From the IMG/VR virus record IMGVR_UViG_2541047898_000010: a DNA stretch of 41,067 nt; one strand, written 5' to 3'. This document shows, piece by piece, positions 4,056 through 34,812 of this stretch; the first letter of the stretch is position 1; every line of letters begins with the position of its first letter. Source of the DNA: a virus. Lineage: Duplodnaviria; Heunggongvirae; Uroviricota; Caudoviricetes. The notes below the pieces were generated by a model. That model saw only the letters and a list, made by a program, of their open reading frames with translations. It was not told the DNA's origin and did no database searches. The position numbers and the translations under genes are program-made.

Positions 4056-4085
4056 AAAGCCCTCTTTAGTGAGGGCTGTTTTTTC
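4056..4085. terminator. Bidirectional intrinsic terminator between convergent gtr cassette and tailspike gene
   Basis: A-run, stem agccctc (4058-4064) / gagggct (4071-4077), then T-run gtttttt. Confidence 0.6.
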
Positions 4086-5934
4086 ACTCAAATAAAGTTT
4101 CCATAATGTATGTGATGCTACCAGTAAATTTAGATGTGGTGCTAATGCTAGAGTCCTGGAGTGGGCTGGTTGCAGGAATTTGGTGATTGTAGAAGTCTAT
4201 AGATGTTGACCCTCTTTCTATAGCAATGGAACACATCCCCACACCAGGTTGTAGTCCTGTAGCAATGGATACAATTCCACTGGCGCGGTTTGACGAAGGG
4301 TAAGGTAAATCCCTGATTTTCATTGCTCCAGTCTGCCCGCTGAATCCATTTAATTCCAAAGAAAATTCGACTGTAACAAGGCCTCCGTCTTTCCTGAATT
4401 TTATATCCGCTGACGCACCTGAAATTCCAACCGTGCTCGTACCAAATGTTATTCTTGCCCCATCAAGAGAGCCTTTAGAGATGAATGGCTCAGGAACTAT
4501 GGACTCAGATGCACCTGTTGCACGATATAAATATTTGTTACCTGGGGTATTAACAATAACAGTAGATCCTGACGCCCATGGACCAGAGCCAATAACAGGC
4601 AACTCTCCACTCTCAAACAGACTGTTAGTAAACACCAAGTTGTTGCCAGGACCGTGTATAAACACGTCGTATTTATATGTTCCACCAGATCTAAAATTGT
4701 TAATTGTTATCCTGTTTTGTGTGCCGTTAATGGATATAAGTGGGCTTTGATCATTGGCGATAGGCAGACATCGGAAAGAATCTATGTTGATTGTGTTCTC
4801 ATTAAGGAATGCTAATGCAGAACCATAATCCAAAGTTTTAGCTCTTGCTTGTTCACAACCACAACCTAATAAATTGATATTAGAACACTTATCAAAAAAA
4901 TAAGCTGTACTTGTGGTTCCATCAGATGCGCATCCTATGAGATTAGAATAACTGACGTTTTCTAAACGAAAAGCCCCGGGAGTCGTATCACCATACTCGT
5001 CTGGTGAGGCGCACCAAACATTGGTATAGGTAGTAGATGTTCCACCATTCTGCCTTATCTGGCCCCATGTCGCGATGTTAGTTAGCGTTGTCAGCCAAAC
5101 ATCATTCATCAAAATAGCGGTCTTAGCATTCTTTACCCCTATCCGCTCAAGAGCATATGCTTGCCCTGCATTTATAGCCAGTCCACATTCTCCTCCAAGA
5201 TCATCAGCCTCTAGCGTAATATCTCTTAATGTCACCCTCTGTGGAAAAGTTTCATAAGATGGAGCCTCAGAATCAACATAAGCTACCGTATCAACAGTAA
5301 ACTCTGGTGCTGATGAGGATTGCCCAGGCTTTAATGTTACAGTTGCATTACCGGTTTTTTTAAATCTCTTTGTGGTTTGAATTTCTGTCCCAGATAGAAT
5401 GAACTGATAATCATGATCTCCATGGTAGGTTTTAAATGAGCTGAATTTAAATCCATCTATTGGGGTGTTCACGTTACCAATGATGTTAGGAAGTTTTTCT
5501 CCGAGAGTGTCACCCACATTGCTTTGGGTGCCGCTTTCTGGGTTTGTGTATCCAACCAGGTTTGCGCCAACTCCTGATCCTAACTCTTGTCTCAATTGGT
5601 CTGGATCATACTTCAGCACATTAGGGAAATAGAATTGCTGAGCACCATATGCATCATAAACAGCCATAGAATGGCCTTGCACGGTAACGAATTTGGCAAT
5701 CTGTCCGTTATATACCGGGTAACCAGCAGCGTTAATGATGATTGGTTGCGAAACAGGAACGTGAGAGCCGTCTTCGTTCTCCACATAAACCTGAATCTGG
5801 TTTTCAGTATTTACCGGATCAGTGTCAATTTTTCCGATATAAATCTTTCCATTAGCTACGGCTTTAAAAGAACGAGCCATAGTGAAGAGTTGCGAAGGCA
5901 TGCTTACTACAACATTGGCTGTAATGTCTGTCAT
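4084..5934 (-). CDS. Tailspike protein (P22/Sf6-type head-binding N-terminus, distinct receptor-binding domain)
   Basis: 616 aa; first ~110 aa ([11 protein letters not shown]...KIDTDPVN...VLKYDPDQ) match P22 tailspike N-terminal domain from memory; ATG at 5932-5934. Confidence 0.9.
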
Positions 5935-6066
5935 TTAATTTGCTCCAGATACAATGAATCGCCGCAGCGTGGCCACGGTTGGTATTTGTTGCATACCGAA
6001 ACGGTACGATTGTTGATTTGTACAGTAGGTTTTACGATGCCATTCCACCCATTTGGTGAGGCATTG
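5935..6066. promoter_or_regulatory. Divergent control region between tailspike and mnt with a perfect 10-bp palindrome CGTGGCCACG (5968-5977)
   Basis: Palindrome read directly; resembles in style the Mnt operator of P22; putative -35 TTGTTG / -10 TACGAT for mnt on plus strand. Confidence 0.4.
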
Positions 6067-6324
6067 ATGATGTACAGCAAATACGATGAGGCGCAGTTCC
6101 ACTTGAGGCTTACGCACGAGTTGCACGCCAAGATTAAACAGCGTGCAAAAATGAATAACAGGTCTATCAATTCCGAAATTGTGGCTACGATGGAAGAATC
6201 ACTCTCCAAACCACCACCTGTAAGCGGGTATCGTGATGAAGAAGAGAGGCTGGCCTCATTAATCTCGGAACGAGTAAAAGAAGTTGCGGCTGATATCCTT
6301 AGAAAAGAAAAAACCCGCGATTAA
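6067..6324 (+). CDS. mnt: Mnt-like ribbon-helix-helix repressor
   Basis: 85 aa from ATG at 6067 (C-terminal part of track ORF 5587..6324); FHLRL...NNRSINSEIV...PPVSGYRDEEERLA resembles P22 Mnt. Confidence 0.75.
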   Translation: MMYSKYDEAQFHLRLTHELHAKIKQRAKMNNRSINSEIVATMEESLSKPPPVSGYRDEEERLASLISERVKEVAADILRKEKTRD

Positions 6325-6333
6325 GCGGGTTTA
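6308..6333. terminator. Hairpin terminator between convergent mnt and antirepressor operon
   Basis: aaaaaa-cccgc-gattaa-gcggg-ttt; overlaps mnt stop codon. Confidence 0.5.
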
Positions 6334-6338
6334 GTTGG

Positions 6339-6560
6339 TTAGTTATCAAAAAGTCCGTACGTTTCTTCTTCTTCAGGTGTAAGGGGAAGAATCTCTACTC
6401 TATCTATAGATACCTTTTCAATGTACCCATGAGGTCTACTTAAAATTAAAGCTCTCTCATGCCACAGAACTCCAAGAATGTGATACCTTCCAGCATCACC
6501 TTTTACCCTAGCTCTTCCTTTGATTCTTGGCGGCATAATGCCATATTTTTTCTTTGCCAT
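6339..6560 (-). CDS. Hypothetical small protein, last gene of antirepressor operon
   Basis: 73 aa ORF; start overlaps stop of upstream gene at 6560. Confidence 0.45.
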   Translation of the reverse strand: MAKKKYGIMPPRIKGRARVKGDAGRYHILGVLWHERALILSRPHGYIEKVSIDRVEILPLTPEEEETYGLFDN

Positions 6561-7288
6561 TATGCAACATTACTCCCATGAATCAGGTGTTGTAGTGCTT
6601 TAACGCCTTCCGCATTGTAGCGGAATGCTTCCACCTGTTTGCTGGAATGCGCAGATTTATCCAGGAAGAACTTCCCGTACTGCTCAGTTTTGAGGTTGTT
6701 TGCGTTAGCAATGCGACCAATCTTGTTGGCCGTTACTCCAAGCTGCTCTGCAACCTCCCCTGCTGAGTAGTAATGCTCTTCTATTGCCGGAAGAGGTATT
6801 GCATTAAAACCAACGAGCGGGTTGATTATACTTGCTGCCGCTGTCTGCTTTGCCTCAGGCGCAAGATTTGGCATCAGATCGAACAGATTGGTAACAGCTT
6901 CAACCGTCATTTTCAATGTTCGCGCTTGACGATACTCAACAAGTCCACTCGCTGATTTACCGCTTTTAATGTGCGCTTCTTGCATGCTTTCAAGTTGGTC
7001 TACCAGTGAGCGGCGAACGGCTTTTGACTCGCGAGCGGCAACTCGCAATGCTTGCTTGATTGACATCTCAATGATAACCATCGAAGTTTTGTTCGCTTTT
7101 TGCACTACACTTTTTGTGTAGTGCTCTCCATCCAATTCATCTTCAATTTTCTCGATGAATTTGTTATTACGAACCTCCGGCTCACCGCACTGTCTACGAG
7201 CCTGATTTACCATCTCAAGCAGGCGCTGGCTGTCAATGGTTTTATCCGTGACAACGGATCCGATGTTTGCTACATTCTTAAAAGTCAT
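6560..7288 (-). CDS. Antirepressor-like protein (KilAC/ANT-type C-terminal region)
   Basis: Track ORF 6560..7375 begins with TTG; an internal ATG at 7286-7288 is preceded by AAGGAA; position downstream of arc-like gene. Confidence 0.55.
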   Translation of the reverse strand: MTFKNVANIGSVVTDKTIDSQRLLEMVNQARRQCGEPEVRNNKFIEKIEDELDGEHYTKSVVQKANKTSMVIIEMSIKQALRVAARESKAVRRSLVDQLESMQEAHIKSGKSASGLVEYRQARTLKMTVEAVTNLFDLMPNLAPEAKQTAAASIINPLVGFNAIPLPAIEEHYYSAGEVAEQLGVTANKIGRIANANNLKTEQYGKFFLDKSAHSSKQVEAFRYNAEGVKALQHLIHGSNVA

Positions 7289-7375
7289 TAGGCATTCCTT
7301 ATGTGGTAGTAAGGGTGTGACATAGGCCGCCAGCAGCACACTGGCGGTTTTCTTTTGCGCCGTCCTGTGCACCAA

Positions 7376-8002
7376 TCAATGAATCCATTCCTCGCCGCGC
7401 AGTTTTGCCAGCATTGGCTGAGCGTTCTTTACGACAAAATTGTTGGTATCAAGATTCTTCATTTCACGAAGAAGTGATTTCTTGGTTTCTTCTGACATGT
7501 AGCGAGTCTCATATGCAATATCGTAAATCCTTCCTGAAAGCTCAGAACCAATTTGCTTCATTCCTGGGTAGATGTGTTTGCACATTTGTTGACTCTTCTC
7601 CATCCACAATTGTAAGTAGCAGAGATTAACCAGCTCTTCGTCAGTGAACTGTTTTGCAATCGGTGAGCATTCTGCCTGCCGATCCAAAATATCCAGCACC
7701 CAGCGGCGGAACTCTTTGGCTACCGGAGTGCGAGCAAACATCGCGATTAGGTGGGCACCGCGTAGTGAGAAAACTCGCACTTTTTTGCGATAATTTCCTG
7801 AGGTACTCACTTCGAGTACCTGAGTCATCCCGGCGCTAAACTCATCGCTATACTTGTTATAAATCATTGTTACTGCACGGCTATTTGCATATTTAAGTGC
7901 AGATGCAATATTAGATGATGTAAACCAAACACCATGCATATCACGGGTGGGCACCAACTCAACTCCGTGGAAGTTGTAATCTGATTTTGCTACAATATTC
8001 AT
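7376..8002 (-). CDS. Bro-N domain antirepressor-like protein
   Basis: Track ORF 7376..8107 begins with TTG; ATG at 8000-8002 preceded by AGGAAA; N-terminus FHGVELVPTRDMHGVWFTSSNIASALKY resembles Bro-N / KilA-N fold. Confidence 0.6.
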   Translation of the reverse strand: MNIVAKSDYNFHGVELVPTRDMHGVWFTSSNIASALKYANSRAVTMIYNKYSDEFSAGMTQVLEVSTSGNYRKKVRVFSLRGAHLIAMFARTPVAKEFRRWVLDILDRQAECSPIAKQFTDEELVNLCYLQLWMEKSQQMCKHIYPGMKQIGSELSGRIYDIAYETRYMSEETKKSLLREMKNLDTNNFVVKNAQPMLAKLRGEEWIH

Positions 8003-8075
8003 GTTAGTTTCCTTGCATACGGTTACTGACATAGAGGCCCGGTTTGTGTTCGCGCACTGCCGGGCTTCACTATTT

Positions 8076-8249
8076 TTATTGGATGACAACATCGCCCTTT
8101 GCCTCAAGTTTCATTAATAACTCCATTCGATAAGCTATCTCTGCCTGAATTGACCTATGGCATCTTTTTGCTGATTCGCGGATATGTGAATCAACCTTTT
8201 CTGTAAAACGAACCTGACGCGGCTTGATGGAAGATATCTTTTCAGTCAT
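8076..8249 (-). CDS. arc: Arc-like ribbon-helix-helix regulator (not in the ORF track, 57 codons)
   Basis: Hand translation: MTEKISSIKPRQVRFTEKVDSHIRESAKRCHRSIQAEIAYRMELLMKLEAKGDVVIQ; ATG 8247-8249 preceded by AGGAG; pattern matches P22 Arc. Confidence 0.55.
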   Translation of the reverse strand: MTEKISSIKPRQVRFTEKVDSHIRESAKRCHRSIQAEIAYRMELLMKLEAKGDVVIQ

Positions 8250-8254
8250 TATGC

Positions 8255-8348
8255 ACTCCTGTTTTTGAAAAACTCATAATCTCACTTTTTGAGGTTTGAT
8301 TATTCACTCACACTCAGTATGAGTCAATGAATTTTTTATGGTGAACTA
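8255..8348. promoter_or_regulatory. Divergent promoter/operator region between arc-ant operon and the second repressor gene
   Basis: Minus-strand -35 TTGACT (plus 8322-8327) and -10 AATAAT (plus 8299-8304); inverted repeat ACTCA-gta-TGAGT (8313-8325); palindrome GTTTTTGAAAAAC (8261-8273). Confidence 0.4.
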
Positions 8349-8990
8349 ATGAATTTTGACGATCAATTCCCATCAAGAGTATCTCTGGCAAGACAGTCGA
8401 GGGGTATGACGCAGGCGCAGTTGTCAAAATTAGCTGGTGTTGTTCAACGTCAAATAGCTGCATACGAGGGTGGTGAGGCTAAACCACGGCTTCGTGTATT
8501 GCAGGCATTAGCCAACGCATTAGGCACTACGGCTGAGTGGTTAGCTCTGGGTGAAGGCCAGGGGCCGGGAACAAAAAACGTCATGCCTGACGTTCTGGTA
8601 AAGCAAATACCAATCCTCAAACTAGATGAAGTTATGCATTACCTAAACACAGGTGAACATTCATCGTCTAGATTTCATCCGGCAATATACAATGTTGGTG
8701 ACTCTGCATTTGCATTGACTATTGAAGGTGAAGCTATGACTACAAGTTCAGGTATTAGCTTTCCCAGAGGATCGGTTGTCACGTTCAGCCCTCTAGTAAA
8801 AGCTAAAAGCAAAGATTATGTAATAGCATCTTTGGATAAAGAGCAAATATTGAGCTTCAAACAGGTTTACATTGGTGAAATAGAGACAAACCTAGTATCC
8901 CTAAACCCAATGTATCCTAATATTCTTGTTAGAAATGAAGATGTTAGTATTTTGGCAACCGCAGTTTACCTTGAAATCCCGTTGCTTTGA
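8349..8990 (+). CDS. LexA/cI-like repressor (HTH_XRE + S24 peptidase-like domain), catalytic Ser apparently replaced by Ala
   Basis: 213 aa; N-terminal HTH (MTQAQLSKLAGVVQRQIAAYE); C-terminal region aligns with the 434 cI in this window (VEGDSMT vs IEGEAMT; FKKL vs FKQV). Confidence 0.8.
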   Translation: MNFDDQFPSRVSLARQSRGMTQAQLSKLAGVVQRQIAAYEGGEAKPRLRVLQALANALGTTAEWLALGEGQGPGTKNVMPDVLVKQIPILKLDEVMHYLNTGEHSSSRFHPAIYNVGDSAFALTIEGEAMTTSSGISFPRGSVVTFSPLVKAKSKDYVIASLDKEQILSFKQVYIGEIETNLVSLNPMYPNILVRNEDVSILATAVYLEIPLL

Positions 8991-9050
8991 TATCCTTTAG
9001 GAAGCGACACATTATCATCTGGTATCCTGCGTAAAACTAAGGAGGTTGGT

Positions 9051-33459: not shown

Positions 33460-34812
<1,353 letters not shown>

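Follow-up and report, generated by a model that had tools for sequence, protein, structure and literature searches.

A cI-like repressor with a dismantled self-cleavage apparatus as the probable keeper of an antirepressor cassette in a P22-like phage

The subject of this study is a 41,067-nucleotide stretch of tailed-phage DNA (IMG/VR record IMGVR_UViG_2541047898_000010; Caudoviricetes), referred to below as the window, and in particular a gene of the window for a transcriptional repressor of 213 amino acids (aa) with the architecture of lambda cI (Table 1). The repressor has the S24 fold and the general-base Lys of the self-cleaving repressors, and it has lost both the nucleophilic Ser and the scissile Ala-Gly. 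It is very probably unable to cleave itself. A self-contained antirepressor cassette would be made up of the repressor gene, a control region of 99 base pairs (bp), a divergent gene for an Arc-like protein, a pair of antirepressor genes and a small open reading frame (ORF). The protein is probably the maintenance repressor of this cassette, insensitive to the SOS response and a functional analogue of Mnt.

A preliminary description, read from the sequence by eye, had recognized the gene as a second protein with a helix-turn-helix (HTH) and an S24-like domain, and this identification holds. The gene starts with ATG in the ORF list. Pfam finds an HTH_3 domain (aa 14-65; E value 9e-13) and a Peptidase_S24 domain (PF00717; aa 108-206; E 1.3e-12, 47.9 bits, the curated gathering score being 23.3 bits), and the protein matches phrog_4, 'transcriptional repressor' (E 7.5e-30). 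In a phmmer search of PDB the lambda cI C-terminal domain is the top match (E 1e-7), and the HTH is matched by the N-domain of the 434 repressor (E 4e-6; query 8-69 to chain 3-63). The AlphaFold2 model, built on 23 relatives, has a mean predicted local distance difference test score of 86.5. Foldseek with this model ranks lambda cI first (3bdn, E 2e-11), with LexA and UmuD' next, and the C-terminal domain of lambda cI (1f39) fits it with a TMt of 0.84 and a root-mean-square deviation of 1.8 Å.

The catalytic positions can be assigned residue by residue. The phmmer alignment pairs EGEAMT of the repressor with EGNSMT of lambda cI, and SFKQV with TFKKL. The same columns result from a MAFFT alignment in which the repressor is set against lambda cI, LexA of E. 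coli and the cI of the window; its lambda cI and LexA sequences reproduce the canonical numbering, A111-G112/S149/K192 and A84-G85/S119/K156, respectively. Lys171 aligns with the mutated Ala of 2hnf, the lambda cI K192A structure, which fixes the correspondence of Lys171 with K192. The nucleophile position is Ala129 in three independent alignments. The preliminary description had aligned the protein by eye, read a Ser to Ala change with the Lys kept, and proposed an S24 alignment and a structure prediction as checks; these place Ala at the nucleophile position in every case and the lambda cI fold at the top, so its alignment was correct.

It had overlooked a second lesion. Val95-Met96 stand in place of the scissile Ala-Gly, and neither Ala-Gly nor Cys-Gly occurs anywhere in the linker (aa 66-107), either on reading the sequence or in the MAFFT alignment. 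The AlphaFold2 model predicts a short helix over aa 92-101, spanning Val95-Met96. Since the nucleophile and the scissile bond are both replaced, self-cleavage appears to be excluded on two counts. The earlier prediction that RecA would not stimulate cleavage is strengthened by the absent Ala-Gly, and it stays a prediction from sequence. The C-terminal domain is presumed to serve dimerisation or oligomerisation only.

Ala129 is not peculiar to the window. An identical protein is encoded in 24 IMG/VR loci and in phage JEP4 (100%, tblastn), and a Salmonella cluster of 62 member sequences, 99% identical to the repressor, has Ala at the nucleophile position too. This recurrence in JEP4, the IMG/VR loci and the Salmonella cluster rules out a strain-specific mutation or a sequencing error. 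By nucleotide match alone, the gene also occurs, at 95-99.9% identity, in 28 of the 5426 complete genomes of E. coli; they label it only 'helix-turn-helix domain-containing protein'. The JEP4 record (MT740315) labels it 'repressor protein C2' and starts it at an internal Met (L001 5131-5700), which gives 190 aa and cuts off the first HTH helix. The RefSeq annotation of E. coli HS has the full 213-aa ORF.

The C-terminal domain is under purifying selection despite the loss of catalysis, by a rough estimate. In this domain the proportion of non-synonymous differences (pN) is 0.17-0.23 and that of synonymous differences (pS) 0.75-0.86, and pN of the HTH domain is 0.05-0.11; with pS at 0.65-0.96 the synonymous sites are saturated, and raw pN and pS were compared in place of dN/dS.

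Sequence searches found about 90 distinct relatives of the repressor. The self-cleavage apparatus has decayed throughout the family. Among 133 representatives the nucleophile position is Ser in 110, Ala in 21, and Gly, Thr and Asp in 2 each, and the general-base position is Lys in 107, Arg in 29 and Val in 1. The scissile Ala-Gly is present in only 35 of the 133, almost all of them distant, ordinary cI-like proteins; the only close cassette-type relatives with it are P0016 and P0045. Over the family, Ala, Gly or Thr has taken the place of Ser, and Arg, Met or Val that of Lys, in several distinct clades, with at least five separate losses of Ser or Lys. In a neighbour-joining tree the nucleophile is missing from no fewer than five parts: the window clade; P0027/L049/L051; P0043; L060/P0047 (which has Gly, and Val for Lys); and a large clade with Ala, Thr or Gly together with Arg. 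The window clade runs from P0005 (Ala) and P0004 (Ala) through P0003 (Ser) to P0002 and the window (Ala). The Ser and Ala codons of this clade are one base apart (TCT and GCT), and the L002 relative has TCT. The preliminary description was right about the Ser to Ala change itself, but the change is no singular event; it forms one step in a family-wide decay with several independent losses of Ser or Lys.

The pairing of the repressor with antirepressor genes recurs across the family. Wherever DNA was available, the layout is the same: an HTH-S24 gene is separated by a control region of some 99 bp from a divergently oriented gene of 57 aa, beyond which lie between one and three genes of antirepressor type. 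Such an ORF of about 57 aa, divergent from the HTH-S24 gene, is present in 41 of the 45 distinct IMG/VR relatives, among which the gap is mostly 86-101 bp once the Arc-like start has been placed. When the window is compared with 47 other loci, the distance between the two start codons is 97-101 bp in most relatives and 86-90 bp in the most distant ones, and the sequence between the conserved boxes of the control region is free to vary. The 85 ORFs beyond the 57-aa gene carry Bro-N (33), P22_AR_C (15), P22_AR_N (11), ANT (8), ORF6N (8), Rha (8) and KilA-N (3) domains.

The phages that carry this layout differ widely. It is found in a tailspike-bearing phage (L004), next to an integrase gene in Salmonella (L005), and in lambda-like siphoviruses (L002 2121-9355; L007 1487-8413; L008 1-8562). 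In the siphoviruses the cassette lies within the tail-gene cluster, either in the gap between tape-measure and minor-tail genes or past a K-like gene and ahead of I- or J-like genes. The cassette thus behaves as a portable moron landing in late operons of unrelated virion types, and the conserved layout points to the repressor as the dedicated partner of a portable antirepressor cassette. The distant relatives (P0012-P0021, L042-L066; columns ~265-340 of alignment A1) have an extra C-terminal extension of about 50-70 aa with the pattern ERL..LE.KLD.L and a coiled-coil look, which the window repressor does not have.

E. coli HS carries the cassette between DNA-transfer and tailspike genes at 98.8% nucleotide identity. 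In this copy (L080 1737-3538; NC_009800 ~327868-329669) an IS3-family transposase gene lies inside the second antirepressor gene and has left a truncated pseudogene. We take the prophage to be HS-1 because the ant-moron figure of PMC2629481 draws an IS3. The paper (Villafane et al. 2008) notes the apparent lack of arc in the HS-1 ant moron and concludes that control of ant must differ from that in P22. We found no characterised member of the cassette in the literature, the nearest being this unanalysed HS-1 drawing in PMC2629481; nor did a literature search find a later analysis of the HS-1 ant moron.

The 99-bp control region suggests where the repressor would act. The best promoter match within 5900-9600 is a sigma-70-like promoter that faces the Arc-like gene and the antirepressor genes, and the GTCAA of its -35 lies at the same distance, about 25-30 bp, from the repressor start in most relatives. 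A perfect palindrome, ACTCAGTATGAGT, overlaps the -35 and the spacer. It has no other exact occurrence in the window, and its right half-site, TGAGT, holds the base that covaries with the repressor as described below. A heptamer, ACTCATA, is the inverted partner of TATGAGT (8318-8324), with 39 bp between the arms, and the pair brackets the core of the leftward promoter. ACTCA is kept at this place across the family, and it is possible that the site is a second repressor site or a site for the Arc-like protein. A repeat search with default seeds for a clean palindromic operator common to the whole family found none; the 48 stacked control regions share the ACTCA and GTCAA boxes, and their palindromes are specific to subfamilies. 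Those around the leftward -10, for example AGGAT-N7-ATCCT in L042/L048 and ATATGAAT-T-ATTCATAT in L033, may be operators of the variable Arc-like proteins.

A covariation between protein and DNA would place the repressor at this promoter. The recognition helix, xRQIAAYEGG, is near-invariant across the family except for its first residue, which is Gln33 in the window. Gln33 aligns in the PDB match with Gln28 of the 434 repressor, a base-contacting residue in the 434 complex. Residue 33 covaries with the base three positions 5' of the -35 GTCAA: TGTGTCAA is found in 9 of the 10 loci with Arg33 and in none of the 38 with Gln, His, Pro, Ser, Thr or Ala (Fisher's test, 6e-9, uncorrected for ancestry). 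Two pairs of sister clades show the switch independently (L048/L055 against L050/L053/L056; L052 against L060). Indirectly, but in a specific way, the covariation argues that the HTH contacts DNA at the -35 of the promoter of the antirepressor operon, the place expected for a repressor.

No LexA box (CTGT-N8-ACAG, one mismatch allowed) is present in 8250-8348, and the number in the whole window is at chance level. Control of the antirepressor operon by LexA, on the model of Gifsy, 186 and N15, is ruled out by this absence.

The genomic setting is that of the variable ant moron of P22-like phages. The window genome is P22-like (Lederbergvirus-type) by homology. The cassette (~6330-9020) is inserted between mnt and sieA, and its place is between gene 16/sieA and the tailspike gene 9; nucleotide homology to P22 (sieA, gene 16) resumes at about 9020. 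P22 immI and the ant moron are described in PMC2629481 and PMC8022706; according to the former, the ant moron region changes rapidly, and sixteen genomes hold ten types of it. The repressor gene has the same position and orientation relative to the operon as mnt has to the arc-ant operon of P22, and is divergent from the gene for a 57-aa ribbon-helix-helix (RHH) protein.

The arc-ant-ant operon of the preliminary description is borne out by a profile match for the first gene and by phrog and Pfam matches for the two antirepressors. The 57-aa ORF by itself has weak Pfam matches (ParD_like 8e-4, Arc 0.011). A profile of 31 57-aa family members matches pArc (1e-4), AmrZ (1.9e-4), CopG (4e-3), Arc (4e-3) and Mnt (0.014) in PDB, over a segment that runs from the beta-strand through helix A into the start of helix B, with its RS.(N/Q).E pattern, and by this homology the ORF is Arc-like. 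The start of antirepressor 1 was placed at the ATG at 8002, which AGGAAA precedes in the sequence. Antirepressor 2 has no Pfam domain above threshold.

The repressor gene has not simply replaced mnt, since a true Mnt homologue is present on the far side of the cassette. The gene for this homologue is convergent with the end of the cassette operon and is not the divergent maintenance repressor gene. It adjoins the tailspike gene and has no arc or ant facing it; similar orphan mnt genes are described in phages L and ST64T (PMC8022706). The beta-strand of the homologue reads QFHLRL, and that of P22 Mnt HFNFRM.

Nor is the repressor the immC repressor of the window. That function belongs to the cI at 33779-34411, which the preliminary description had called 434-type, in agreement with its match to the 434 repressor N-domain (E 9e-38). 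In the MAFFT alignment this cI keeps Ala-Gly, Ser and Lys, and it is 26% identical to the repressor. The repressor gene is not located in immC; it lies in a moron, with an RHH gene and antirepressor genes opposite.

Table 1. Features of the cassette and its surroundings in the window
Feature	Coordinates	Strand	Basis
Repressor gene, HTH_3 + S24-like (non-catalytic)	8349..8990, stop included	+	ORF list; Pfam; phrog_4; AlphaFold2; Foldseek
HTH_3 DNA-binding domain, aa 14-65	8388..8543	+	Pfam; 434 repressor N-domain match
Val95-Met96, aligned to scissile Ala-Gly of LexA/cI/UmuD	8631..8636	+	MAFFT
S24-like C-terminal domain, aa 108-206	8670..8966	+	Pfam; lambda cI C-terminal domain; Foldseek; pN vs pS
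Ala129 codon GCT, nucleophile position (lambda S149, LexA S119)	8733..8735	+	PDB and MAFFT alignments
Lys171 codon, general-base position (lambda K192, LexA K156)	8859..8861	+	PDB (2hnf) and MAFFT alignments
Divergent control region, 99 bp, Arc-like gene to repressor gene	8250..8348	.	
Sigma-70-like promoter TTGACT-17-AATAAT facing Arc-like/antirepressor operon	8299..8327	-	10/12 matches
Perfect palindrome ACTCAGTATGAGT, candidate operator, overlapping -35 and spacer of leftward promoter	8312..8324	.	
Heptamer ACTCATA, inverted partner of TATGAGT, 39 bp between arms	8272..8278	.	
57-aa Arc/CopG-type RHH protein (by homology), first of leftward operon	8076..8249	-	phrog_10182 2e-37
Antirepressor 1 (Bro-N + P22_AR_C)	7376..8002	-	P22_AR_C 4.6e-14; Bro-N 2.2e-10; phrog_245 'anti-repressor Ant' 2e-53
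Antirepressor 2 (KilA in JEP4 annotation)	6560..7288	-	phrog_1726 'anti-repressor' 5e-101
73-aa ORF, last of leftward operon	6339..6560	-	phrog_4977 5.5e-54; annotated in JEP4
Terminator-like hairpin and T-run ending leftward operon, just past convergent mnt	6311..6332	-	
True Mnt homologue	6070-6324	+	P22 Mnt 1mnt E 1.5e-15
Tailspike gene 9	4084-5934	-	
sieA	9051-9545	+	
Gene 16	9568-11409	-	

A dedicated, SOS-insensitive repressor of the antirepressor module was one of the roles suggested in the preliminary description, and it is the role best supported by the conserved pairing, the promoter, the lack of a LexA box and the covariation. The repressor would bind over or beside the -35 of the promoter that reads leftward, with ACTCAGTATGAGT as part of its likely operator and perhaps with ACTCATA as well. 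The dead S24 domain would only dimerise or oligomerise the DNA-binding domains, and the repressor would not cleave itself whether RecA is activated or not. In a lysogen, the Arc-like/antirepressor operon would be held off whatever the SOS state, and DNA damage would induce the prophage through the 434-type cI, which is intact and cleavable. When the phage enters a cell without this repressor, be it naive or a heteroimmune lysogen, the antirepressors would be made briefly and would be able to inactivate resident repressors of the cI type. The Arc-like protein and newly made repressor would then close the operon. The scheme follows P22 immI, except that a pseudo-protease shaped like cI would do the work of Mnt.

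Several observations weigh against this role. The assignment of the operator, made from the sequence, is provisional: the ACTCAGTATGAGT palindrome is clear only in the window clade and in L002 and L008, where it is partly conserved, and L004 and L005, whose recognition helix is the same, retain the right half-site alone, the left half being degenerate. The covariation statistic takes no account of shared ancestry. A consensus scan of the + strand of the control region does not find a convincing sigma-70 promoter from which the repressor gene would be read, and the candidates found by eye, TGCACT-17-CATAAT and TTGATT-16-TATGAG, are poor. The estimate of selection on the C-terminal domain is rough because the synonymous sites are saturated. 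Lastly, many relatives retain Ser and Lys without Ala-Gly, and these may carry out catalysis or sensing at a non-canonical site.

The conservation of a domain that has lost its catalysis also suits another explanation, that the repressor can still be switched by a signal other than RecA. The dead S24 domain would then dock a partner, such as an antirepressor of its own or another phage, a host protease or a small ligand, and the cassette would be inducible and not constitutively silenced. The C-terminal domain is constrained although catalysis is lost, and the GxxM motif and the Lys are retained. The inactivation of non-cleavable repressors by antirepressors is well documented, and antirepressors can act on non-cognate repressors (PMC3121763). 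The C-terminal extension of the distant relatives could be a sensor or interaction module. However, the window protein is without this extension, and dimerisation explains the conservation of the domain equally well. We regard a switchable repressor as a doubtful alternative to constitutive silencing.

Residual proteolysis is very improbable. It would require that the repressor cleaves itself, or is cleaved in trans, at a non-canonical bond by means of Thr131, Thr132, Ser133 or Ser134 together with Lys171. The retention of Lys171, the many relatives with Ser and Lys but without Ala-Gly, and the Ser of P0003 among Ala-bearing neighbours of the window clade can be cited for it. However, LexA S119A was used to trap the uncleaved form in structures 1jhh and 1jhc, both among the Foldseek matches, and the Ser of the active proteins belongs to a fixed GxSM turn. 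The toggling between Ser and Ala, in a clade uniformly without Ala-Gly, has the look of drift at a site where selection for catalysis has ceased.

It is just as improbable that the gene is a decaying remnant, on the way to a pseudogene and without a present function. The ant morons are in rapid flux, often with degraded genes, according to PMC2629481, and the E. coli HS copy has an IS3 in its second antirepressor gene. Against decay, the ORF is intact and recurs in 24 IMG/VR loci and JEP4 (100%) and in 28 E. coli genomes (95-99.9% nucleotide identity), pN is well below pS in both domains, and the length and motifs of the control region are kept across relatives of 33-81% protein identity.

The decoy role that the preliminary description had offered as an alternative finds no support and is the least probable of all. 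Such a decoy would bind activated RecA filaments or form mixed oligomers with the 434-type cI, would not be cleaved, and would so damp or delay SOS induction of the prophage. The C-terminal domain has a general likeness to that of lambda cI, and an S24 protein that is not cleavable may in principle go on binding RecA, but the cleavage-site region, which in LexA and cI is part of the docking surface for the RecA filament, is replaced and predicted to be helical, and mixed dimers are unlikely at 26% identity to the window cI. In very different, unrelated phage backbones the gene is strictly linked to the Arc-like/antirepressor operon, which likewise speaks against a decoy and for a local regulatory role, as opposed to modulation of a particular cI.

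The proposed maintenance repressor can be compared with several known systems. P22 immI occupies the same slot, from gene 16/sieA to gene 9; it likewise has a maintenance repressor divergent from an operon of an Arc-type RHH gene and an antirepressor gene, and the P22_AR_C domain is common to it and antirepressor 1 of the window. The keeper of immI is Mnt, an RHH tetramer of 82 aa, whereas that of the window is a 213-aa protein with an HTH and the S24 fold. The window also differs in having two antirepressors of different domain make-up, a 73-aa ORF, and a Mnt homologue displaced to the far side of the cassette.

Lambda cI, 434 cI and P22 C2 (MEROPS family S24) share with the repressor the two-domain architecture, the fold and the Lys general base. 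Unlike them, it has Ala for Ser and Val-Met for Ala-Gly, and its gene is in a late-region moron and paired with an RHH gene, not in immC and paired with cro. LexA S119A (1jhh), LexA G85D (1jhf) and lambda cI K192A (2hnf) carry the kind of cleavage-blocking substitution that is natural in the repressor. Those are laboratory alleles, whereas the change in the repressor is fixed in nature, accompanied by loss of the cleavage site, and recurrent in the family.

Non-cleavable prophage repressors with separate antirepressor modules are known in Gifsy, 186, N15 and Fels-1 (FsoA), and the Fels-1 antirepressor is under a phage repressor and not under LexA (PMC3121763). Like the window, the systems of Gifsy GfoR/GtgR, 186, N15 and Fels-1 FsoA combine a repressor that does not cleave itself with an antirepressor module outside the immunity region. 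The Gifsy repressors, however, are of about 136 aa and without a C-terminal domain, and their antirepressor genes are repressed by LexA, whereas the window repressor has the full S24 fold and its control region no LexA box. In the known systems either the repressor is without the C-terminal domain or LexA governs the antirepressor. Moreover, the window repressor is proposed to control the antirepressors and is not established as their target. For the HS-1 ant moron, the passages of PMC2629481 consulted do not identify the HTH-S24 protein, its dead active site or the Arc-like 57-aa gene.

In its proposed working the repressor is Mnt-like, and it is outside the Mnt/Arc family; it has cI-like architecture but is no immC repressor. 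Non-cleavable repressors and antirepressor modules are already known. The novelty lies in a full S24 fold whose active site has been dismantled in nature and which is proposed to guard an antirepressor cassette.

Two side observations concern the surroundings. A promoter-like sequence, TTGATA-17-CATTAT (9/12), lies at 8987-9015 on the + strand, right past the repressor stop and before sieA, and no terminator was detected between the repressor gene and sieA; without one, sieA may be read from both its own promoter and the repressor transcript. The profile search for relatives also returned proteins of 640-2332 aa (P0023, P0025, P0039, P0044, P0049, P0055) with 7-16 tandem HTH-only matches, which are tandem arrays of Cro/cI-type HTHs unrelated to the repressor finding.

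Antirepressor modules decide whether a prophage is woken by an incoming phage and whether a lysogen is immune to relatives of its prophage. The cassette is a second, unstudied wiring of such a module, in which a cI-shaped protein that has lost the SOS trigger would stand in for the small Mnt. The relatives range from proteins with Ala-Gly, Ser and Lys all kept to those with all three lost, and they form a natural series on why the S24 domain persists. When annotations attach the labels 'LexA family', 'repressor C2' or 'S24 peptidase' to such genes, SOS inducibility does not follow. The covariation of residue 33 with an operator base is a directly testable rule of specificity. Three points are of wider interest: the cassette is portable, its control region is conserved in length, and its catalytic decay forms a graded natural series. 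We tentatively raise the idea that these cassettes make up a second-immunity family, in which a cI-type repressor was recruited and its self-cleavage machinery repeatedly dismantled, and which is spread over P22-like ant morons, lambda-like tail clusters and prophage ends. In an equally speculative extension, the dead S24 domain of such portable second-immunity cassettes would serve as a sensor or docking surface for a non-SOS cue, for example the antirepressor of a superinfecting phage. If that is true, the cassettes would constitute a layer of phage-phage cross-talk that is independent of DNA damage.

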